From: Candidatus Methylomirabilis sp.
GTDB lineage: Bacteria; DYJV01
NCBI GenBank assembly: GCA_020722945.1
Contig: DYJV01000007.1
Location: 1-54,609 of the forward strand
Direction of reading: 5' to 3'
DNA length: 54,609 nt
Within the stretch, counting starts at the first letter, position 1. Each line of letters begins with the position of its first letter. Below, piece by piece: positions 1,529 through 50,323 of the stretch. The position numbers and the translations under genes are program-made. The notes under the pieces were generated by a model that made no database searches, was not told the DNA's origin, and saw nothing but the letters and a program-made list of their open reading frames with translations.

Positions 1529-1557
1529 ATTGATATTACAATGTCAGCAGGTATTAA
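1529..1557 (+). promoter_or_regulatory. Sigma70-like promoter: TTGATA, 17 bp spacer, TATTAA
   Basis: Hexamers and spacing read from the sequence. The predicted transcription start falls just before the RBS aaaaggaga of the first small gene. Confidence 0.3.
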
Positions 1558-1583
1558 AATAAAAGTAAAAAGGAGAATTTAAA

Positions 1584-1838
1584 ATGAAGGGTAAAAAAAT
1601 TGTAGTATCAGTATTAGTAGCAGGAATGTTGGTATCAGTGCCACTATTTGCAAAGGGTAAAGGGTATGCAGGTGGTCAGAATAGTGGGATTACACAGCCG
1701 TCAGGACAACAATTGATGCAGGGCAATGGTGATGGAACACAGCCGAGACCTATGGATGGAACAGGTTTTGGAGCGGCAAATGGTGGTGGAAATGGGTTAG
1801 GTTTGCAAGATGGTAGTTGTTTGATTAATGAATTATAA
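1584..1838 (+). CDS. Small secreted Gly/Asn/Gln-rich protein, paralog A (84 aa)
   Basis: Strong RBS aaaaggagaattt-aaa-ATG. Sec-type signal peptide MKGKKIVVSVLVAGMLVSVPLFA. Low-complexity mature region with a single Cys near the C-terminus. Confidence 0.6.
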   Translation: MKGKKIVVSVLVAGMLVSVPLFAKGKGYAGGQNSGITQPSGQQLMQGNGDGTQPRPMDGTGFGAANGGGNGLGLQDGSCLINEL

Positions 1839-1865
1839 AAATAAAAGTAAAAAGGAGAATTTAAA

Positions 1866-2126
1866 ATGAAGGGTAAAAAAATTGTAGTATCAGTATTAGT
1901 AGCAGGAATGTTGGTATCAGTGCCACTATTTGCAAAGGGTAAAGGGTATGCAGGTGGTCAGAATAGTGGGATTACACAGCCGTCAGGACAACAATTGATG
2001 CAGGGCAATGGTGATGGAACACAGCCGAGACCTATGGATGGAACAGGTTTTGGAGCAGCAAATGGTGGTGGGAAGAGATTAGGTTCGCAAAATGGTAGTT
2101 GTCCTCTAACAACTGTAACACAATAA
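1866..2126 (+). CDS. Small secreted Gly/Asn/Gln-rich protein, paralog B (86 aa). Its C-terminal tail has diverged from paralog A.
   Basis: Residues 1-69 are identical to paralog A. The tail is KRLGSQNGSCPLTTVTQ, against NGLGLQDGSCLINEL in paralog A. Confidence 0.6.
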   Translation: MKGKKIVVSVLVAGMLVSVPLFAKGKGYAGGQNSGITQPSGQQLMQGNGDGTQPRPMDGTGFGAANGGGKRLGSQNGSCPLTTVTQ

Positions 2127-2647: not shown

Positions 2648-3226
2648 TTGAAATTTAGAAGATTTACATCTTTTTTTCTTTTTTTTACCTTTATTGTTAT
2701 GTGTTTTTCAGGGATAGTTCTTTATATTATGCCTCCTGGGAAGATTGCATATTGGATTGATTGGAGATTTATCAATCTGAATAAGACTCACTGGAATGCT
2801 TTGCACACAATTTTTAGCTATATTTTTGTTATTATCTCCTTTTTCCATATAGTTTTTAATTGGAACCCTATCCGTCAATACCTCATTAAAAATAGAAAAG
2901 AACTTTTCTCAAGCATTGCTTTGTCAATTATTATTGCTGCATTTACTATATTGAATGTTTCACCTTTTAAGCAGGTTATGGATTTTAGAGAGTATATCCA
3001 CACTTCATGGGAAAATAAAAAAATTGCACCATCTATTCCACATGGGGAGCTCCTACCACTTGTAAAGCTCTGTAAAATGATAAATGTTGATGTAAAAATA
3101 GCAGCAGAGAGACTAAAAAGTAACGGCATTATATTTTCCGATATGGAAGAGAGAGTTGTTGATATTGCCAAAGTAAATAAAGTCAAACCTGTAAAAATTT
3201 ATTACATCATAAAAAATGGAAAATGA
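2648..3226 (+). CDS. DUF4405-like integral membrane protein, putative heme-b-binding
   Basis: TTG start with RBS aagggggt. Three TM helices. His residues cluster in and near TM2 (THWNALHTIFSYIFVIISFFHIVFNW), as in DUF4405 proteins. A C-terminal soluble extension follows. Confidence 0.5.
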   Translation: MKFRRFTSFFLFFTFIVMCFSGIVLYIMPPGKIAYWIDWRFINLNKTHWNALHTIFSYIFVIISFFHIVFNWNPIRQYLIKNRKELFSSIALSIIIAAFTILNVSPFKQVMDFREYIHTSWENKKIAPSIPHGELLPLVKLCKMINVDVKIAAERLKSNGIIFSDMEERVVDIAKVNKVKPVKIYYIIKNGK

Positions 3227-3603
3227 GAATTTATTTTCTTGCTCTTATCTTAATTATATTTCTCCTTTCTGAGTTAGCTGGAAGAGATTTTATAAAAGCA
3301 AAAATTTTAGAATTTGATGGAGAGAGTAGATACAAACTTATAGATATATTTGATCAAAAAACTTACGATTTGATTTTAGATAAAGGGAGCACCCTAAATC
3401 TTCAAAATGAAAGCATAATTTTTATTAATTCAGATGGCTTGGAGGGTAAAAGTATTATAAGAGAGAGTGATATTATTGATGTTAAAAGTATTAAGGGGTG
3501 CAAAATCCGTGAAAGGATGAAACATATTGATAAAAAGAGAGCCTTTTTTAAAGGGGGTAATCTACTTAATCATGGTGGTTCTGGCACTCACCATAGCAAG
3601 TAG
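3223..3603 (+). CDS. Secreted hypothetical protein with a His-rich C-terminus (126 aa)
   Basis: N-terminal signal peptide MRIYFLALILIIFLLSELAG. C-terminal HGGSGTHHSK. Its 3' end overlaps the next gene by 77 nt. Confidence 0.4.
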   Translation: MRIYFLALILIIFLLSELAGRDFIKAKILEFDGESRYKLIDIFDQKTYDLILDKGSTLNLQNESIIFINSDGLEGKSIIRESDIIDVKSIKGCKIRERMKHIDKKRAFFKGGNLLNHGGSGTHHSK

Positions 3604-4438
3604 ATTGTTTTCTGAAAATTTGTTTGATATTAGAACAGGGTGGGGATATTCAGATAATATTTTGAGAAATAGTGACAGTTTAGGCAGTGGGTTTATCAAT
3701 TTAAATTTTTCAGATTATTTTATATTTGACAATAGTTCTTTTGCACTTATTACAGATAACAACATCAAAGTATTTACAGAAGAATCTTGGAGTAGTAATA
3801 GTAATTTACTTTTTGAGATTGATTATAACTTTGAAAATTCTTTTATTGGATTGGGAGTAAATAAGCTAATTGATAATAATGATAGGCAGAACAGTTTTTA
3901 TTCACTTTTTCTTATTTCTCAATATTCGTATAAAATTTTTGATATATCGTATATTTTATCATTTAAAAATTTTTCTGAAGAGTATGAATATGGCTCATTT
4001 AAAAATTCTATTTCCAAAAATAGACAACCTTTAAAAAAAAGGAGTAAAGAAGTCAATTTTATTGATGTTAATCAAGAGGATTTTAACCATATTCTATCTT
4101 TAGAAGTAAATCTTGATAATGTCAAATTTACACCTTTGATTGAATACAATAAAAGTAATGTTTCACGAGAAACTTACTTCTTGTATGGTCTCTCTTCATC
4201 TTATTCAAAACAGATAGATAGAGTGTTAGTTGACTTTTTGTTGTCTTATAATTCTTACAATTATACCAAAATTGACAGGGATGACAATCTGTTTAAAGTT
4301 GCTATATCTGCTGAGTATATGCTTGGGAAATTACTATCATTGACACTTTCTGATACTTTTGAAAAAAATATATCAGATTTTGATGGTGAGGATTACAACG
4401 CAAATACAATTATGCTCAACATAGGATTGGTTTACTAA
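3527..4438 (+). CDS. Putative outer-membrane beta-barrel protein (303 aa)
   Basis: TTG start with RBS aaagga. The signal peptide is MIKREPFLKGVIYLIMVVLALTIASRLFS. The protein has alternating amphipathic beta-like segments rich in Y/N/S and a C-terminal aromatic residue, ...GLVY. Confidence 0.5.
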   Translation: MIKREPFLKGVIYLIMVVLALTIASRLFSENLFDIRTGWGYSDNILRNSDSLGSGFINLNFSDYFIFDNSSFALITDNNIKVFTEESWSSNSNLLFEIDYNFENSFIGLGVNKLIDNNDRQNSFYSLFLISQYSYKIFDISYILSFKNFSEEYEYGSFKNSISKNRQPLKKRSKEVNFIDVNQEDFNHILSLEVNLDNVKFTPLIEYNKSNVSRETYFLYGLSSSYSKQIDRVLVDFLLSYNSYNYTKIDRDDNLFKVAISAEYMLGKLLSLTLSDTFEKNISDFDGEDYNANTIMLNIGLVY

Positions 4439-5941
4439 GTGTCTCGTAGAAGATTGCTAATATATAATCTCCTATTTCTCTTCATACTTATTTCTATTAT
4501 TATTTTTCATTATCAGAGGCACTATTCTGACCTAAAAAGAAAAATTGTGGTTTTAATTACTAAACAGGCTGAATCTGTTGCCAGAAGGGTAGAAGTTGCT
4601 GCAAACATTGCTTTTGAGTCAACCCAGTTTGTAAATAAAATAATCAGAGACAACCTCATCTCACATGCCAAATTTTTAGACCTTCTCAATTCGATAGAAC
4701 CTTTTACATCTCAGGAACTTGACGAATACACACTTGAGACAAATATCAACCTTATAGCTATCAGAAGTATAGATAAAAAAATTGTATCTTCTAATATGGG
4801 CAAGTTTAAACAAGAGGATATTGAAGCTCTTTTTAATAATTTTGATAGAGCTACTGTTAAGTTTCAAGAAATGGATCAATCGTATCTTCTTTTTTACTCT
4901 GGTCAATACTCTTCTGGTAGTGATATTATCATTGGTTTTGATGGGAGAGAGTATACTCAAAACATTAAAAAGATATCTGTAGAAACTCTCCTTGAAAATA
5001 TAAAGAAAAGGGGTGCAGTAATCGATGCGGTTTTAAAAAATGGAGTGGCAGATGGCGGGGTGAGATTAGTAGAAGATAAATTTTTCGAGGTAAAGGTTCC
5101 TGTAATGGGTGATTCACAGAGGTTTTTGGAGTTACGTATAGATGCTAAAAATGCTTTAAGGATCATAGATAATTTTAGGCATAACCTTATAGTTTTTATC
5201 TCAGTTATTCTATCAAGTGGTCTTTTTGGGATTATTCTAATTTATATACTTCAGAATTTCTATTTATCTAAAATAAAAGTTTATGAAAAGAAACTTTTTG
5301 ATAATGAAAAGGATGCTGCACTTGGAAGGAGTGCTGCTATGGTTGCACATGAGATAAGGAATCCTATAAATGCTGTAAGCATGGGTATTCAGAGGATAAA
5401 GTATGAAACTGACATCTCCAAAATTGATGAGTATAGTCAGCTTATCGAGACTATTGATAATGAACTTAAAAAAATCAATAGTGTTGTGAATAATTTTCTT
5501 GATTTTACAAAACCTGTAAAAGCAGATAAAAAAGATATAAAGATTAGAGAGTTGATTGATAACATTCTCCTTCCATATAGAAATAGCTTATCTGTCGATG
5601 TATCAGTTTTAATTTCTGAAGAGTTAATTATCCCTTGTGATAAAATTCTTGTTGAACATATATTTGGTAATCTTATAAAAAATGTATTTGAGAATGAAAA
5701 GGCAACCTATTTAAAAATTTATTATGAAAAAAATTTTAATCAGAAATTGATTATATTTGAAAATGATGGTATTGAAAAAGATGCTGCTACTGATAATTTT
5801 TTTGAACCTTACTTTACCACTAAGAGTAAGGGAGCAGGTTTGGGACTTGCTATTGTCAAAAAATTTGTAGATGCCCATAATTGGGAGATAAGTATAGATA
5901 ATAGTAGAAAAAACATTATCAAATTTATGATTTCTATTTAA
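4439..5941 (+). CDS. Sensor histidine kinase with a ~220-aa periplasmic sensor domain. No response regulator is adjacent.
   Basis: GTG start. Two TM segments, at roughly aa 8-24 and aa 246-268. H-box AMVAHEIRNPINAV. G2 box KSKGAGLGLAIVKKF. Confidence 0.8.
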   Translation: MSRRRLLIYNLLFLFILISIIIFHYQRHYSDLKRKIVVLITKQAESVARRVEVAANIAFESTQFVNKIIRDNLISHAKFLDLLNSIEPFTSQELDEYTLETNINLIAIRSIDKKIVSSNMGKFKQEDIEALFNNFDRATVKFQEMDQSYLLFYSGQYSSGSDIIIGFDGREYTQNIKKISVETLLENIKKRGAVIDAVLKNGVADGGVRLVEDKFFEVKVPVMGDSQRFLELRIDAKNALRIIDNFRHNLIVFISVILSSGLFGIILIYILQNFYLSKIKVYEKKLFDNEKDAALGRSAAMVAHEIRNPINAVSMGIQRIKYETDISKIDEYSQLIETIDNELKKINSVVNNFLDFTKPVKADKKDIKIRELIDNILLPYRNSLSVDVSVLISEELIIPCDKILVEHIFGNLIKNVFENEKATYLKIYYEKNFNQKLIIFENDGIEKDAATDNFFEPYFTTKSKGAGLGLAIVKKFVDAHNWEISIDNSRKNIIKFMISI

Positions 5942-12402: not shown

Positions 12403-13365
12403 ATGAAAAAAGAACAAAAACTTTCAAACATCATAATTTATCAAGCACCAAATGGAGCCATTGAACTAAAAGGTGATTTTGATAAAGAAACAATTTGGGC
12501 AAATCAAAGTCAAATTGTAGATCTTTTTGGAGTAGATCAATCTGTTATCTCAAGACATATCAAAAATATTTTCAAAGATGGTGAAGTAGACCAAAAAAGC
12601 AATATGCAAAAAATGCATATTCCAAATTCTGATAAACCTGTTGTTTTTTATTCTTTGGATGTGATTTTGTCTGTCGGATATAGGACAAATTCTAAAGTTG
12701 CAATTGATTTTAGAAAATGGGCGACAAATATTCTAAAAGATCATTTAATACAAGGCTACACTATCAACAAAAAAATACTTGCCAAAAACTATACACTCTT
12801 TCAACAAGCACTTTCTGATATACAAAAGATTTCTCAAAATAAACTTTTTTCAAATGATATTTTGGAATTGGTAAAAACTTTTAGTTATACTTGGTTTTCG
12901 CTTGATGCTTTTGATAAGGAAAGATTGCAAACTAAAAAAATAACAAAAAAATCTATAAAACTTGATGCTAAAAAACTTTATGAAGATTTAGAAATATTAA
13001 AAAAGGAACTTATAGCAAAAAATGAAGCAACTGGCCTTTTTGCACAAGAAAAACAAAAAGGAAGTTTAGAAGGTATTTTAGGAAATGTTTTTCAGTCAGC
13101 TTTTGGACAAGATGTTTATCCAAGTATAGAATCAAAAGCAGCACATTTACTATATTTTATCGTCAAAAATCATCCCTTTAATGATGGCAACAAAAGAAGT
13201 GGTGCTTTTGCTTTTATCTGGTTTTTGCAAAAAGCAAAATATGGTTTTATAGATAAAATCACACCTCAAGCATTAACAGCAATTACCTTGCTTATTGCAA
13301 TAAGTGATCCAAAGGACAAGCAAAGAATGATTGATTTGGTAATTTTACTTTTAACTGGAAAATAG
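12403..13365 (+). CDS. RhuM-family N-terminal domain fused to a Doc-type Fic domain (Fic/DOC family protein)
   Basis: The N-terminal ~200 aa match the RhuM pattern (...IWANQSQIVDLFGVDQSVISRHIKNIF...VILSVGYRTNSKVAIDFRKWAT...). The C-terminus carries HPFNDGNKRSG, which is the Doc-type HxFx(D/N)GNKR variant of the Fic motif. Confidence 0.8.
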   Translation: MKKEQKLSNIIIYQAPNGAIELKGDFDKETIWANQSQIVDLFGVDQSVISRHIKNIFKDGEVDQKSNMQKMHIPNSDKPVVFYSLDVILSVGYRTNSKVAIDFRKWATNILKDHLIQGYTINKKILAKNYTLFQQALSDIQKISQNKLFSNDILELVKTFSYTWFSLDAFDKERLQTKKITKKSIKLDAKKLYEDLEILKKELIAKNEATGLFAQEKQKGSLEGILGNVFQSAFGQDVYPSIESKAAHLLYFIVKNHPFNDGNKRSGAFAFIWFLQKAKYGFIDKITPQALTAITLLIAISDPKDKQRMIDLVILLLTGK

Positions 13366-45290: not shown

Positions 45291-45959
45291 TTACTGCAGC
45301 AAATAACCAACCTTTGAAATAGCTTTTATCATTCCTGCTCTCTCACCCAGCTTTCTTCTTAATGCAGAGACATGTGAATCTACGGTTCTTGTCTGGACAT
45401 CTGATGAATATCCCCACACTCTGTCAAGGAGCTGGTCACGAGTGAGTATTTTATTTGGATTCTGAATAAATATCTTCATTAAGTCAAACTCTTTTTTTGA
45501 AAGTTGATGTTTCTGGTCATTAATAGTCATTATGTATGTATCAGGGTCTATCTCAATATCGTTGTATTTAAAATTCTCTATTACAACTTTGTTCCCTCGT
45601 CTAAGGACTGCTTTTATCTTTGTGATTAGAAGTTTAAATGTAAAAGGTTTTGCAATATAATCATCCGCTCCGAATTCTATCCCTTTTACAATATCATCTT
45701 CACTGTTTTTAGCTGATATTATTATTACAGGGACATCTTTAAAGGAGTTGTTGTCCTTTATTATTTTTAAAAAATCAAAACCTTTAAGCCCCGGAAGCAT
45801 TAAATCAAGCAGAATAAGGTCAATCTGCATATCCTCAAGACATAGCAGAGCATCATTTGCATTTGTAAAATTTAAAACTTCAAAATTTTTTGCTTGAAGA
45901 TTAAATTTTATAAGGTCGCCTAACTCTTTATGATCTTCAATTAGAAGTATTGTCTTCAA
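45291..45959 (-). CDS. phoB: OmpR/PhoB-family response regulator, probably the phosphate-regulon regulator
   Basis: 222 aa, receiver plus winged-helix domains. It is immediately downstream of, and overlaps, phoU in the pstSCAB-phoU cluster. Confidence 0.7.
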   Translation of the reverse strand: MKTILLIEDHKELGDLIKFNLQAKNFEVLNFTNANDALLCLEDMQIDLILLDLMLPGLKGFDFLKIIKDNNSFKDVPVIIISAKNSEDDIVKGIEFGADDYIAKPFTFKLLITKIKAVLRRGNKVVIENFKYNDIEIDPDTYIMTINDQKHQLSKKEFDLMKIFIQNPNKILTRDQLLDRVWGYSSDVQTRTVDSHVSALRRKLGERAGMIKAISKVGYLLQ

Positions 45960-46626
45960 TATTTTCAGCCTCTTTTAGGTGTTTATGTTTGATTATTTTA
46001 CCTGTTGCCATAAACACTACAAGTTCTGCTATATTTGTGATATGATCAGCTATTCTTTCATAATTTTTTGATATTATCATTAATGATTGTGCACACTCTA
46101 TCTTTTCTGGCTCCTCTTTTATTAATTTTAAGAGCTCTCTTATTATCTGGTCATTTAATTGGTCTATATAATCATCTTTTGAGATTATATTGTATGCTAA
46201 TGCAGTATCTTTGTTAAAATATGAATCTATAGCCTCTTGAAGCATATCCATTATAGATTTTGCCATCTTGGGAAGATCTATGTAAGGTTTAAGTGGTTTG
46301 ACATTGTTTAATTTTAATACCTGATTTGATATATTGCCACATAGATCGCCTATTCGTTCAAGGTCTATGATTATTCTAAGTGCAGTGATTATAAATCTGA
46401 GATCAAGTGCTTTAGGTTCATAAAGTGCTAATATCTTTAAGCATGTATCCTCTATTTCAAGTTCTAATCTGTCTATTATTGAGTCATCCTCTTTTACCTT
46501 AAGAGCAAGATTAGAATCCATATTAACGAGTGAAGTTATACTGCTATCTATCATAGATTTGACGCTTGAACACATTTTAGCAATCTCTGTTTTCAGAGAA
46601 ATATAAAATTGATCTGTATGTTTCAT
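45937..46626 (-). CDS. phoU: Phosphate signalling complex protein PhoU
   Basis: 229 aa. Two PhoU repeats with a D..ERIGD-type motif. Confidence 0.9.
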   Translation of the reverse strand: MKHTDQFYISLKTEIAKMCSSVKSMIDSSITSLVNMDSNLALKVKEDDSIIDRLELEIEDTCLKILALYEPKALDLRFIITALRIIIDLERIGDLCGNISNQVLKLNNVKPLKPYIDLPKMAKSIMDMLQEAIDSYFNKDTALAYNIISKDDYIDQLNDQIIRELLKLIKEEPEKIECAQSLMIISKNYERIADHITNIAELVVFMATGKIIKHKHLKEAENIEDNTSN

Positions 46627-46674
46627 AATGTCTCCTATAAAAGTTATATTTATTTTATAAATAGATTAGAAATT

Positions 46675-47430
46675 TTAACCAAATCTTCCACTTACATACT
46701 CCTCTGTAAGTTTCTGGTTTGGATTGGTAAAGATACTTGCTGTAACATCAAATTCTATTAACTCTCCAAGATACATAAATGCTGTAAAATCTGATATTCT
46801 TGCAGCCTGTTGCATATTGTGGGTTACTATTATTATTGTTACAAGATTTTTTATGGAATACATCAACTCCTCTATCTTGGAAGTGGATATTGGATCAAGA
46901 GCACTTGTTGGCTCATCAAAGAGTAATATTTTCGGTTCTACGGCAAGAGCTCTTGCAATAACAAGTCTCTGCTGCTGCCCGCCTGATAGCCCTGATGCCT
47001 GATGTTCAAGCCTTGACTCAACTTCTTCCCATATAGCTGCATCTTTTAAAGCTTTTTCTACTCGATCCTTTAACTCTGTTTTGTTCTTGATACCTTTGAG
47101 CTTTAATCCGTAAGATACATTGTCAAAAATAGTCATAGGAAAAGCTGTTGGTTTTTGGAAAACCATCCCAATATCGCTTCTTAATTTGATTAAATCGTTA
47201 TTATTTGCAAGAATATTCTCGCCATTTAATAGAATCTTCCCCTCATATTTGTTGTTATGATATAGGTCGTGCATTCTATTAAAACAGCGCAGTAGTGTAG
47301 TTTTCCCACAACCTGAAGGACCTATTAAAGCAGTAATTTTATTCTCAATAATTTCCATAGATATATTTTTGAGAGCTATAGAGTTTCCATAGTAGAAATT
47401 GAGATTTTTGATCTGTAAAATTGAGTTCAT
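46675..47430 (-). CDS. pstB: Phosphate ABC transporter ATP-binding protein
   Basis: 251 aa. Walker [10 protein letters not shown], signature LSGGQQQRL, and a PstB-type N-terminus. Confidence 0.95.
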
Positions 47431-48272
47431 TTTTTATATCTCCAAGAAATAAGTATTCTTCCCAATATTGTGAGAAATAATATTGTTATTGTTATAATAA
47501 AAGATGCTGCCCATGCCAAACTATGCCAATCTTCATAAGGTCCCATTGCATATTGAAATATAGTAACAGTGAGTGAAGGTGTTGGTTGGTTGAGGTTTAG
47601 TGTAAAGAAAGAGTTGTTAAAAGAAGTAAATAAAAGTGGTGCGGCTTCTCCTGAAACTCTTGCAATTCCAAGTAAAACACCTGTTAGTATCCCTGTTGCG
47701 GCACCCTTGTATAAAACTTGTATGATAACTTTGTAGTATGGTGCACCGAGTGCAAAAGCAGCTTCACGTAATTCGTCAGGGATAAGTCTGAGCATCTCTT
47801 CAGTTGTTCTTATTATTATAGGGAGCATAATTATAGCAAGAGAGACCCCACCTGCCCAGCCGCTGAAATGTTCTAAAGGTCTTACCATTATTGCATAAAC
47901 AAATGTTCCAACAACAATTGCAGGAATGCTTATAGTTATGTCTGCTAAAGTGCTTATCATCTGAGGAATGAATTTGTTTCTCCCATACTCTGCTAAATAT
48001 GTCCCACCAAGAATTCCTATTGGAACTCCAATTAATACTGCAACAAGAATAATTAGAAATTGTCCTATAAAAGCGTTCCTTAATCCTGCTCCTTCTACCC
48101 CTGGTGGAGCAGGATCGTGTATAAAAATATCAAGGTTTATTGAATGCATCCCGTGCCAGAGAAGGTCTACAAGGATGAAGATGAGCCAAAAGAATCCTAC
48201 AAATGCACATATGGCTGAAATTGAGAGGAAAAGATTATTTTTAATTCTTCTTTTAAATAAATTATCGAACAT
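47427..48272 (-). CDS. pstA: Phosphate ABC transporter permease PstA
   Basis: 281 aa, multi-TM, with the EAA-type motif region of PstA. Confidence 0.9.
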
Positions 48273-49185
48273 TTTTCTTCCTGATTATATATTTTGCAAA
48301 CGATAAAATAATAAAGCTTGAAATGAATAGTATTAATGCGAGAAAAAATAGAGATGAAAGATATAAATCTGTTGTTGCTTCGGTAAATTCATTTGCAAGA
48401 ACGACTGTTATAGTAGTTGCTGAATCAAATAATGATAGGGGGATTTTGTGAGTATTTCCTAAAACAAATGCAACAGCCATAGTCTCTCCAAGAGCTCTAC
48501 CAAGTGCAATAACAATACTTCCGTAAATTCCATATTTTGAATATGGCAACATAACATCTTTTATTACTTCCCACTGATTAGCCCCCATACCATATGCAGA
48601 TTCTTTGAGAATCTGAGGTGTAAGAGACAAGGTATCTCTTGTTATTGAAGCAATAAATGGTATGAGCATTATACTTAGCACTATACTTGCTGTGAGTACA
48701 TCTATTCCAAGTGGTGTCCCTTGAAAAAGGTATTTTATGATGGGGATTGAACCAAATATTTTTTGTAAAGATGGTTCAATATAATCAGACATAATTGGAG
48801 CAAGGGTGAAAAGCCCCCACATCCCGTAGATTATACTTGGAATTGATGCAAGTAGCTCTATAGTGCTTCCAAAAGCTGTTTTTAAAAATTTAGGACAAAG
48901 TTCTACAATAAAAATCGCAATTCCTATTGATATTGGGATTGCGATAAGTAGTGCAAGAAATGTAGTCAAAATAGTCCCTGCTATCATTGTAAGAGCTCCG
49001 TAGATCTCATTAACAGGGTCCCATATAGTTGTAGTTACAAATTCAAAAAATCCAAATTTGGTAATTGATTCTTTTGATTCGATTAAAAGGGTTATGAATA
49101 TTCCAATGATGATTAAAATTACTGAAAAAGATGCACCTGATGTGATATATTTAAAGATGTTATCAAAGGTTCTTGCTTTATTCAT
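48262..49185 (-). CDS. pstC: Phosphate ABC transporter permease PstC
   Basis: 307 aa. Called as PstC from its multi-TM permease architecture and its position between pstA and pstS. Confidence 0.9.
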   Translation of the reverse strand: MNKARTFDNIFKYITSGASFSVILIIIGIFITLLIESKESITKFGFFEFVTTTIWDPVNEIYGALTMIAGTILTTFLALLIAIPISIGIAIFIVELCPKFLKTAFGSTIELLASIPSIIYGMWGLFTLAPIMSDYIEPSLQKIFGSIPIIKYLFQGTPLGIDVLTASIVLSIMLIPFIASITRDTLSLTPQILKESAYGMGANQWEVIKDVMLPYSKYGIYGSIVIALGRALGETMAVAFVLGNTHKIPLSLFDSATTITVVLANEFTEATTDLYLSSLFFLALILFISSFIILSFAKYIIRKKNVR

Positions 49186-49270
49186 AGAATTTGTGCCTTA
49201 TTAGAATTAGAGTGTATTTACCAAGTTACCATAATGTTAAATTAGAAATTAAGAAGATTAATCATAAATA

Positions 49271-49306
49271 AACAAAGGTTGGTAATTTGGGTTACCAACC
49301 TTTGTT
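49271..49306 (-). terminator. Perfect 15-bp stem with a 6-nt loop between pstS and pstC. Intra-operon partial terminator or mRNA-stabilising element.
   Basis: aacaaaggttggtaa-tttggg-ttaccaacctttgtt with a U-rich flank in both orientations. It lies 7 nt downstream of the pstS stop on the minus strand. Confidence 0.5.
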
Positions 49307-49312
49307 TTTATA

Positions 49313-50323
49313 TTAGTATGCTCCGTTATCCTTCCAATAACCCCTGATACTTTCTTTTAAATTTTCAGGTAAAGGTATATAAATAAGTTTTATTGCTGCC
49401 TCGTCCCCATTTTTGAAAGACCAGTCAAAGAATTTAACAACTTTTTTGTTTGCTTCAGGATTGTCTTTTCTTAATAAGATAAAGCTTGCTCCTGCTATTG
49501 GCCAAGATTTTTTGCCAGGTGAATCTACTAACCAAAGATAGTAACCTTTGCTTTTATCCCATTTTGCATAAGCAGCAGCTTCTTTAAAATTATCAAATGA
49601 TGGCTCAACAAAATTACCCTCTTTGTTCTGAAGTTTTGTGTAAGTAAGTTTATTTTGCTCTGCGTATGCAAATTCTACATAACCGATAGAGTTATCAATT
49701 TTTTTTACATAATTTGCAACACCTTCATTACCTTTTCCACCAATACCTGCAGGCCATTTAACTGAAGTCCCTTTGCCAACAGCTTTTTCCCATTCAGGAG
49801 AGACAATAGAAAGATATGATGTAAAAATTGCTGTAGTCCCTGAACCATCAGCTCTATGAACTATCTCTATCTTTGCATCTGGAAGATTCACATCTTTGTT
49901 GATACTTTTGATTGCAGGATCGTTCCATTTTGTGATTTTAGCAAGGAAGATATCAGCAAGAACTTTTGGAGTCAAAGATAATTGTCCATTACTAACCCCT
50001 TTGATATTAACTATAGGAACTACTCCACCCATAATAGCAGGGAACTGGAGTAACCCATTTTTTTCAAGTTCTTCAGGTTTTAATGGATTGTCAGAAGCAC
50101 CAAAATCAACTGTTTTAGCTTGAATTTGTTTAATTCCACCACCAGAACCGATAGATTGATAATTCAACTGAACTCCTGTAGCTTTGTTGTAAGAGTGGCT
50201 CCAAGCCCCATAAACAGGATAAGGGAAAGAAGCACCAGCCCCATTTATCTGCTTTTCATCTGCAAACGAAAAAGTTGCAGTTAAAAGCAGAGCAAGAACA
50301 CTCAATAAAAATCTTTTTAACAT
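49313..50323 (-). CDS. pstS: Phosphate ABC transporter substrate-binding protein
   Basis: 336 aa. Signal peptide, then the PstS family pattern (GAGASFPYPVY..W...Y). Confidence 0.9.
   Translation of the reverse strand: MLKRFLLSVLALLLTATFSFADEKQINGAGASFPYPVYGAWSHSYNKATGVQLNYQSIGSGGGIKQIQAKTVDFGASDNPLKPEELEKNGLLQFPAIMGGVVPIVNIKGVSNGQLSLTPKVLADIFLAKITKWNDPAIKSINKDVNLPDAKIEIVHRADGSGTTAIFTSYLSIVSPEWEKAVGKGTSVKWPAGIGGKGNEGVANYVKKIDNSIGYVEFAYAEQNKLTYTKLQNKEGNFVEPSFDNFKEAAAYAKWDKSKGYYLWLVDSPGKKSWPIAGASFILLRKDNPEANKKVVKFFDWSFKNGDEAAIKLIYIPLPENLKESIRGYWKDNGAY

Follow-up and report, generated by a model that had tools for sequence, protein, structure and literature searches.

Genes A and B are small open reading frames (ORFs) that stand in tandem near one end of contig DYJV01000007.1 of Candidatus Methylomirabilis sp., a stretch of 54,609 nt with a G+C content of 32% that is referred to here as the window. 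They are best read as old, gene-converted paralogs at the head of a probable sigma-54-type envelope regulon, and the likeliest job of their products is to bind, buffer, or hand on metal in the periplasm; the probability of this reading as a whole is put at about 0.6. Its structural parts are firmer: it is very probable that A and B belong to a widespread family without a name of small, Sec-secreted, Gly-rich proteins, that gene conversion has acted on the pair, and that the operon is laid out as described below. The features of the gene pair and its upstream region are as follows.

1451-1477, no strand assigned: upstream activator-like site with half-sites TGTCGA (1451-1456), TCGACA (1462-1467), and TGTCGA (1472-1477), including the palindrome TCGACA-ATTT-TGTCGA (1462-1477)
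1519-1534, + strand: sigma-54-type -24/-12 promoter-like element, TGGCATAGCTATTGAT, 65 nt upstream of the gene A ATG
1552-1833, + strand: tandem repeat unit 1, 282 bp, with the ribosome-binding site and gene A
1556-1789, + strand: putative gene-converted (homogenized) tract in copy A, partner 1838-2071 in copy B; 1 difference in 234 nt, sites 109 and 117 strain-specific
1584-1838, + strand: gene A, 84 aa; signal peptide residues 1-23, mature part 61 aa, core GDGTQPRPMDGTGFG, tail NGLGLQDGSCLINEL
1834-2115, + strand: tandem repeat unit 2, 282 bp, with the ribosome-binding site and most of gene B
1866-2126, + strand: gene B, 86 aa; same as A through residue 69, mature part 63 aa, tail KRLGSQNGSCPLTTVTQ

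Self-comparison of the window aligns positions 1552-1820 with 1834-2102 as a direct repeat spaced by 282 nt. This agrees with a first-pass annotation made from the sequence alone, which had described two 282-bp direct repeats, each carrying the same ribosome-binding site and an 84- or 86-aa ORF. The ribosome-binding site common to both copies is AAGGAG and lies inside the repeat unit, while the promoter region lies outside it, and repeat unit 2 has no promoter element of its own. In register, the two copies show a single mismatch over 1556-1789 (234 nt), a G/A difference at 1775, followed by 6 mismatches in the 31 nt of 1790-1820, and they cannot be aligned from 1821 on; the step in mismatch density (1/234 versus 6/31) has a Fisher p of 1e-5. 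The near-identity of the 5′ regions thus stands as first described, but the count of one synonymous base in the first ~230 nt does not, as two synonymous changes, at ORF nt 192 (GCG/GCA) and nt 207 (GGA/GGG), precede the first amino-acid replacement. No further family copies were found in the 54.6-kb window beyond A and B.

The two proteins are identical through G69, the last shared residue, and each tail carries one Cys, at residue 78 in both, as had been read from the sequence. In residues 1-23, a basic n-region precedes a hydrophobic core of 17 residues with LFA at its end, and the segment looks like a Sec-type signal peptide. The mature parts are ~6 kDa, contain 27-30% Gly and 12 Gln plus Asn residues, and differ in their tails alone, yet the net charge is reversed: mature A (30% Gly) has an isoelectric point (pI) of 4.7, and mature B has a pI of 9.6. 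Given the shared Cys position and the opposite charge, an A-B heterodimer or disulfide pair is conceivable.

The age of the pair can be judged from a sister strain in a Joint Genome Institute (JGI) metagenome (3300000227), which was found by exact-sequence look-up, both proteins clustering with two JGI proteins. Its two contigs, L046 and L001, are 99.3% identical to the window upstream of the pair and 99.9% identical downstream, the upstream flank (0.7%) being more diverged between strains than the downstream flank (0.08%). L046 stops just past the crossing from the A tail and stop codon to the B ribosome-binding site and start, while L001 opens 18 nt before the B ATG and runs through the B tail into the next gene, which encodes a MamS/MamX-domain protein, and the rest of the operon. 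Four-way comparison of the window and JGI copies gives two opposite groupings. At ORF sites 109 and 117, both window copies have A and G and both JGI copies have T and A, and no site within nt 1-206 favors a split by orthology. Sites 210, 211, 213, 221, and 226 follow the paralogs instead, as do the tails over their full length, with window A equal to JGI A and window B equal to JGI B. Bases are therefore strain-shared inside the tract and paralog-grouped outside it, with an abrupt boundary between the two.

Because both tails are present in the sister strain, base for base the same as in the window, the A/B pair is older than the strain split. The incongruence between tract and tail, with a breakpoint near ORF nt 207, is very probably the signature of gene conversion acting on a duplication that predates that split. 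Ongoing conversion between A and B would keep the ribosome-binding site and the first ~207 coding nt nearly identical, and the final ~50 nt would fall outside the conversion tract and retain two paralog-specific tails, one giving an acidic and the other a basic mature protein. The first-pass annotation had called the duplication fresh, which does not fit tails shared between strains and tract bases that are strain-specific in both copies; it had also raised gene conversion of the 5′ portion alone as an alternative, and the four-sequence comparison agrees with that second suggestion. Two points weigh against it: concerted evolution is backed by only two informative sites and by metagenome assemblies, and both JGI contigs break inside the repeat, so that the assignment of variants to copies could be imperfect. 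Two metagenome scans for further strains, with the exact DNA of the A tail and of the shared body, matched nothing.

Partial gene conversion is a known source of concerted evolution in tandem bacterial paralogs such as tufA/tufB and pilin or surface-protein cassettes. The A/B pair resembles these systems in that paralogs within the tract are closer than orthologs between strains, with a sharp edge and orthology outside. It differs in that the tract is very short (~235 bp) and ends exactly before the distinct tails, leaving one body with two ends.

The tails themselves have counterparts elsewhere in the family. The A tail (QDGSCLINEL) is like the tails of the homologs P0023, P0033, P0049, and P0030, whose BLOSUM62 scores are 30-50 with tail A and 17-30 with tail B, and P0023 is a single-copy gene at a syntenic MamS/MamX locus (L012/L050). 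The B tail (KRL...GSC...TTVTQ) resembles a T-rich class with a final Q, ...KRLRDGSC[LVI]NNTTTQ, which in the nearest metagenome-assembled genome (MAG) stands at a second locus together with DUF2202 and DUF4405 genes (L010). The assignment of the B tail to this class is qualitative, BLOSUM62 scores being about equal for most B-type tails, and this counts against the scheme of two old tail types. The comparison is suggestive of tail classes that recur in the family, clearly for A and weakly for B, and it runs counter to the earlier description of the tails as hypervariable.

That the tandem duplication is truly recent, and that without any conversion its 3′ end alone then diverged or was replaced very fast, perhaps under positive selection, is an improbable account of the same sequences. 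It draws on the scarcity of synonymous differences (1-2) over the first 207 nt and on codons 69-76, which hold four amino-acid replacements against one synonymous change. The sister-strain tails are unchanged base for base, however, so that no ongoing fast tail evolution is seen; the strain-specific substitutions of the body are common to both copies; and the likeness of the A tail to tails of single-copy homologs at syntenic MamS/MamX loci argues for old tail types. That the array is an assembly artifact, for example strain variants of a single gene joined in tandem, is scarcely credible: the source is apparently a metagenome-derived assembly and the JGI contigs break in the repeat, but the independent assembly spans A to B (L046) and B to the MamS/MamX gene (L001) with the same junction sequences as the window.

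The tandem pair is lineage-specific. Among 50 loci it is present solely in the window and the sister strain, and most related loci carry a single copy. Many close homologs lie on contigs shorter than 1.1 kb (P0002, P0026, P0030, P0032, L011), which, together with the JGI breaks in the 282-bp repeat, hints that repeats or multiple copies of the small gene often break assemblies.

A and B very probably belong to a widespread family of small Sec-secreted proteins. Single-sequence word-indexed searches recovered nothing beyond the proteins themselves and the sister strain, and homologs were revealed by exhaustive HMMER and profile searches. The HMMER search against 1.84 billion representatives found a handful of short homologs with GDGTxPRPxDGTGFG and (L)RDGSC; the profile search found at least 330 protein clusters (90% identity) at E ≤ 0.001; and a motif scan of GTDB genomes found 36 genomic loci that carry the motif. 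These 36 loci are distributed over Ignavibacteriota/Melioribacteraceae, Thermodesulfovibrio/Nitrospirota, Deferribacterales, Thermotogae, Bipolaricaulota, Chloroflexota, and Holophagales. The best 120 of the 330 clusters all lack a Pfam domain and, wherever a source name is shown, are called "hypothetical protein." For A, B, and diverse homologs, no meaningful match was obtained in Pfam or NCBIfam, in keeping with the initial failure to recognize a named family. DUF5320, a candidate because of its DGTGP motif, was dropped, Pfam giving no match even at E ≤ 5.

Family members are small (about 80-170 aa), with a signal-peptide-like N-terminus in which Ala23 is invariant in the alignments. Their core motif, G-D-G-[TS]-x-x-[RKA]-P-x-D-G-[TS]-G-[FY]-G, is present in both A and B, and G49, P56, D58, G59, G61, and G63 are invariant in the same alignments. 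The single-Cys motif, [LM]-[RQ]-D-G-S-C, takes the form LQDGSC in A and SQNGSC in B, both scored as matches, and its [RQ]DGSC element lies C-terminal or N-terminal to the core depending on lineage, being N-terminal in Thermodesulfovibrio-type members. The mature part is best described as intrinsically disordered on the basis of an AlphaFold2 prediction from a 34-sequence alignment: the predicted local distance difference test (pLDDT) score is below 50 at residues 24-53 and 63-84, and the signal-peptide helix (2-17) alone is moderately confident. Sequence searches of the PDB with profiles of the small family and of its MamS/MamX neighbors gave nothing significant.

The region upstream of gene A carries candidate elements for sigma-54-dependent control. 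TGGCATAGCTATTGAT is the sole match in the window to TGGCAYNNNNNTTGMW, with 0.34 matches expected by chance, and ten lineages (among them L002, L009, L010, L016-L019, L023, and L040) have comparable sigma-54-like elements at 53-87 nt before the start codon. TCGACANNNNTGTCGA is matched once in the window even with one mismatch allowed (0.00 expected by chance). Family operons of L005/L006, L010, L012/L050, and the sister strain (L046) are preceded by the same TCGACA-N4-TGTCGA palindrome, and near-copies occur in L002, L009, and L047. L005, L047, and L050 each encode a sigma-54-activator response regulator divergently upstream, and the relatives' regulators match the AtoC, ZraR, and NtrC models below the equivalog cutoffs.

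From these elements, sigma-54 control of the A/B operon appears likely. A and B would be transcribed from one sigma-54-type promoter, and its activator is presumably a response regulator of the NtrC type that binds TCGACA-N4-TGTCGA and is phosphorylated by the sensor kinase at the end of the cluster. Two observations speak against this scheme: the -12 element is TTGA rather than the consensus TTGC, and no cognate sigma-54-activator response regulator is encoded in the window.

Downstream of gene B, a co-directional series of genes ends in the sensor kinase, as first described, with no sigma-54-type response regulator in the window.

2146-2580, + strand: MamS/MamX-domain protein, 144 aa, secreted; PF26390 recorded for the exact protein
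2587-2623, + strand: hairpin and U-rich stretch after the MamS/MamX gene; -27 kcal/mol, z = -5.8, 0 of 200 shuffles equally stable
2648-3226, + strand: DUF4405 membrane protein, putative heme-b cytochrome, 192 aa; Pfam PF14358, E = 1.8e-17
3223-3603, + strand: 126-aa protein, hydrophobic at its N-terminus and without a match in Pfam or NCBIfam
3527-4438, + strand: outer-membrane beta-barrel protein of the BBP2_2 family; Pfam PF10082, E = 7e-8; ortholog in L012
4439-5941, + strand: sensor histidine kinase of the NtrB/AtoS/ZraS type, with HisKA and HATPase_c domains

The MamS/MamX-domain protein at 2146-2580 contains neither Cys nor a CXXCH motif, and it scores a weak 17.4 bits (E 0.0025) with the NCBIfam MamX model, for which the equivalog cutoff is 400. 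A single-sequence model (pLDDT 63) is beta-rich, and its best PDB matches in Foldseek are OB-folds, none of them significant; the protein is probably an OB-fold. The hairpin that follows it, which a simple terminator scan did not call, is likely a partial terminator or mRNA-stabilizing element. It may split the operon into a highly expressed part, with A, B, and the OB-fold gene, and a weaker downstream part. In L012/L050, a terminator-like hairpin directly follows the single small gene.

In the DUF4405 protein, the Pfam match covers residues 6-72, with about three membrane helices and His48, His53, and His67, and is followed by a soluble C-terminal domain. The protein resembles the short FezC-like type, for which heme binding as a dimer is proposed, and not the six-helix DUF4405 proteins. 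Heme-b binding has been shown for one DUF4405 protein and for FezC (PMC11334425), and DUF4405 and DUF2202 recur in ferrosome clusters. ORFs of similar size to the 126-aa gene occupy the same position in L012 (127 aa) and L047 (125 aa), a likeness by size and position alone. The barrel gene has two candidate starts, 3527 (TTG, overlapping the 126-aa ORF) and 3572 (the 288-aa JGI call). The kinase start is likewise ambiguous, with 500 aa from the GTG at 4439 (also the JGI call) and 464 aa in the NCBI/Logan record. The best NCBIfam matches of the kinase are AtoS (4.7e-36) and then ZraS (4.8e-27), both below curated cutoffs. In L012/L050, the cluster that holds the kinase ortholog also includes a gene for a sigma-54-activator response regulator, which is transcribed divergently.

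The partners of the small gene were counted within 5 kb of the family gene in 37 related loci of at least 4 kb. Two-component-system genes are present in 24 of the 37 loci, DUF4405 in 6, and DUF2202 in 6. A MamS/MamX homolog occurs in 8, usually immediately downstream, with further cases in L005 and L047. An alternative putative barrel of 360-390 aa, which differs from BBP2_2, is found in 11 loci and is Ignavibacteria-type. At least one module component is present in 28 of the 37 loci; the window itself has the MamS_MamX, DUF4405, barrel, and kinase genes and lacks the regulator.

Efflux genes adjoin the module in Thermodesulfovibrio, where the small gene and the MamS/MamX gene lie between the kinase/sigma-54 regulator pair and an efflux operon. 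In L029 (8823-14986), the genes after the module encode a TolC-like outer-membrane protein, a CzcB-type adaptor, and a CusA/CzcA-family resistance-nodulation-division (RND) pump (TIGR00914, 1155 bits against a cutoff of 701). The CzcB-type adaptor in these loci has a His-rich N-terminus. A second Thermodesulfovibrio locus, L017 (8796-12950), also encodes a thioredoxin and a CcdA/DsbD protein.

The proposal of a metal or redox role is made because the partner genes, namely DUF4405, DUF2202, MamS/MamX, and the CusA/CzcA pump, point there; a DUF2202 protein of L010 that bears the small-protein tag and the DxDGDG-repeat proteins of Ignavibacteria, both described below, are read in the same way. 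A and B would be the first and probably the most abundant products of an envelope regulon whose other products are the outer-membrane barrel, the DUF4405 b-type cytochrome, and a periplasmic protein of the MamS/MamX type with an OB-fold. Metal could be bound, buffered, or handed on in the periplasm through the Asp/Gly core and the Cys thiol, and A and B may feed back on the kinase. The regulon is probably an envelope metal-stress response. The narrower proposal that A and B themselves are abundant periplasmic Asp/Gly/Cys-based metal-binding or -buffering proteins, possibly with kinase feedback, is tentative and falls somewhat short of even odds.

Several points count against a metal role. No experiment or homology links the small proteins themselves to metal binding, and they contain few His and a single Cys. 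The metal link is drawn from neighbor genes in distant lineages rather than from the window, which has neither an efflux pump nor a ferritin-like gene.

The closest known parallel is ZraP, the small periplasmic main output of a sigma-54 promoter governed by an NtrC-type regulator and an NtrB-type kinase in the zinc-responsive envelope stress response of E. coli and Salmonella. ZraP has a Gly-rich, Cys-containing C-terminus, binds metal, forms oligomers, and belongs to the helical CpxP/Spy (LTXXQ) family. The window resembles the ZraP-ZraS/ZraR system in having a small predicted periplasmic protein behind a sigma-54-type promoter-like element and a kinase whose second-best NCBIfam match is ZraS. 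The small proteins differ from ZraP in that there is no sequence relationship: they are ~60-residue disordered chains with no Pfam match, and no LTXXQ helical domain was found in A or B by Pfam or NCBIfam at E ≤ 1-5. The best reading of this comparison is that A and B may be a non-homologous functional analog of ZraP with ZraSR.

A second parallel concerns the MamS/MamX-domain neighbor and not the small proteins. YgiW-type periplasmic OB-fold (BOF) stress proteins are encoded next to QseBC, and the window likewise has a gene for a probable periplasmic OB-fold protein beside a two-component kinase gene, a likeness of context. MamS has been modeled on YgiW, and MamS and MamX act in magnetite maturation, with MamS and the C-terminus of MamX predicted to be OB-folds (PMC3905215). 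In the window, the MamS_MamX domain (PF26390) gene is followed by a DUF4405 b-type cytochrome candidate, which parallels MamX with the YedZ-like ferric-reductase domain of MamZ. The window protein differs from MamX in lacking the magnetochrome CXXCH motif and Cys altogether. No magnetosome-island genes were found in the window, and its ORFs of at least 150 aa gave no match of the MamZ type (major facilitator superfamily or YedZ-like ferric reductase).

A bolder version of the metal reading treats A and B as a new class of disordered periplasmic metal-handling peptides that work with the MamS/MamX-type OB-fold protein and the DUF4405 cytochrome. The operon would then be a sigma-54-controlled extracytoplasmic module for metal (perhaps iron) redox, detoxification, or mineral handling in non-magnetotactic anaerobes, a free-living relative of the MamS/MamX-MamZ redox step of magnetosomes. 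In it, gene conversion would preserve one metal-binding body common to A and B, with two oppositely charged tails directed at different partners. This version is doubtful.

The strongest rival to metal buffering would have the small proteins serve chiefly the kinase: as accessory factors in the periplasm, they would inhibit it or act as its co-sensors, in the manner of CpxP-CpxA or ZraP-ZraS, and would not be metal buffers or carriers. The frequency of two-component-system genes near the family gene suits such a role, as does the position of the small genes directly behind a regulated promoter, which is the layout of autoregulatory accessory proteins, and the stretch between two membrane segments of the kinase forms a large periplasmic region. 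About one third of the loci have no two-component system nearby, however; the co-occurring MamS/MamX, DUF4405, barrel, DUF2202, and RND-pump genes suggest a role with those partners; and the small proteins have no homology to CpxP, Spy, or ZraP. A mainly regulatory function is unlikely on this balance, and metal handling is preferred.

Less probable still is a surface fiber, matrix, or amyloid-like material to which the small Gly/Gln/Asn-rich proteins would contribute, as subunits or as cargo that leaves through the cluster barrel, with A and B comparable to CsgA/CsgB or FapB/FapC. The cluster does combine two tandem small secreted paralogs, an outer-membrane barrel, and small periplasmic accessory proteins, and the amino-acid composition of the mature proteins is compatible with such a material. 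The mature part has no internal imperfect repeats, however, and is predicted to be disordered rather than beta-rich; its conserved core is Pro-rich (PRP); the barrel belongs to the porin-like BBP2_2 family and not to CsgG or FapF; and most related loci have one copy only.

The first-pass annotation had seen in the pair the architecture of secreted signalling peptides, bacteriocins, or precursors of ribosomally synthesized and post-translationally modified peptides (RiPPs), and had found the GGG tract reminiscent of a double-glycine processing site; on this reading, cleavage there would free the variable Cys tails. In this genome, the products indeed differ in their last 15-17 residues alone, with one Cys per tail; a kinase closes the cluster; and the hairpin after the small gene in L012/L050 is of a kind often found after highly expressed precursor genes. 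Short tandem ORFs with the same N-terminal regions and differing C-terminal ends are features that the pair shares with double-glycine bacteriocin and RiPP precursors.

The conservation pattern contradicts that architecture. Mean pairwise identity among 14 close homologs is 0.53 in the signal peptide, 0.62 in the N-terminal mature segment, 0.84 in the core, 0.47 in the linker, 0.85 in the DGSC motif, and 0.44 in the tail. Conservation peaks at two internal motifs and not in the leader, the signal peptide being variable, which counts against a precursor with a leader and a variable core. The N-terminal position of RDGSC in Thermodesulfovibrio-type members leaves no fixed order of leader and core, and the identity of the supposed leader in A and B is accounted for by gene conversion. 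The Cys motif also occurs outside the family: at 8293-9021 of L010, a DUF2202 ferritin-like protein ends in the small-protein tag (...LRDGSCLYNTNQ / ...GLRDGSCLYNTNQ / ...GMGLRDGSCLYNTNQ). From its placement in these proteins, the motif appears to behave as a portable C-terminal module and not as part of a leader/core junction.

The proposed processing site fares no better. Double-glycine leaders consist of 15-30 residues with no hydrophobic core and end in GG, GA, or GS. In gene A, GGG occupies residues 67-69 of 84 and lies behind a hydrophobic N-terminus of the Sec type. Among window ORFs of at least 150 aa, Pfam found no C39-peptidase, radical-SAM, YcaO, or lanthipeptide-enzyme domain, and the single ATP-binding cassette (ABC) transporter match sits in a phosphate-transport cluster beside PhoU. 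A peptide-precursor function is very improbable, and a periplasmic metal-handling role for intact secreted proteins is favored over it.

The mechanism that generates the pattern of one body and two tails is ordinary, while the family and the module are uncharacterized. For genome mining, the case is a warning that genes converted over part of their length can pass for peptide precursors with a "conserved leader, variable core" signature. The analysis also exposes an unannotated small-protein family across several anaerobic phyla, with a conserved sigma-54-type promoter, an operator, and recurrent partners. If the metal-handling reading is true, the module would give a physiological context to non-magnetotactic MamS/MamX homologs, and its small proteins would be a new type of disordered periplasmic metal-stress protein.

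Two further observations concern related loci. In Ignavibacteria, a second small secreted protein stands beside the family member and carries thrombospondin-type-3-like DxDGDG(Y/I)xDN repeats that resemble calcium- or metal-binding repeats. Such proteins are encoded at L013 8384-8821, L015 1384-1875, L026 8436-8876, L038 8335-8775, and L039 8282-8764. The syntenic small gene of L012 (3658-3940; GTDB MAG binchicken_co219_16) is shifted in frame by +1 within a run of G and is intact in another assembly (P0023/L050); the frameshift is likely an assembly error or a phase-variable tract.

Elsewhere in the window, positions 53-818 carry type IV pilin- or pseudopilin-like genes upstream of YjbQ, with counterparts at 252-2113 of L046 (N_methyl domain in the sister contig). 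A protein with Fic/DOC and RhuM domains at 12403-13365 lies amid housekeeping genes and may be the remnant of a mobile or toxin-type element. The cluster at 45291-50323 is of the phosphate-transport type (PhoB and PstSCAB-like): besides an OmpR-type response regulator and PhoU, it encodes an ABC ATPase, a PBP-like binding protein, and two BPD_transp_1 permeases. No other DNA-binding response regulator is encoded in the window, and this one is unrelated to the kinase that starts at 4439. The window also encodes LpxB, a heptosyltransferase, and an aldehyde:ferredoxin oxidoreductase, a gene content that indicates a Gram-negative anaerobe.

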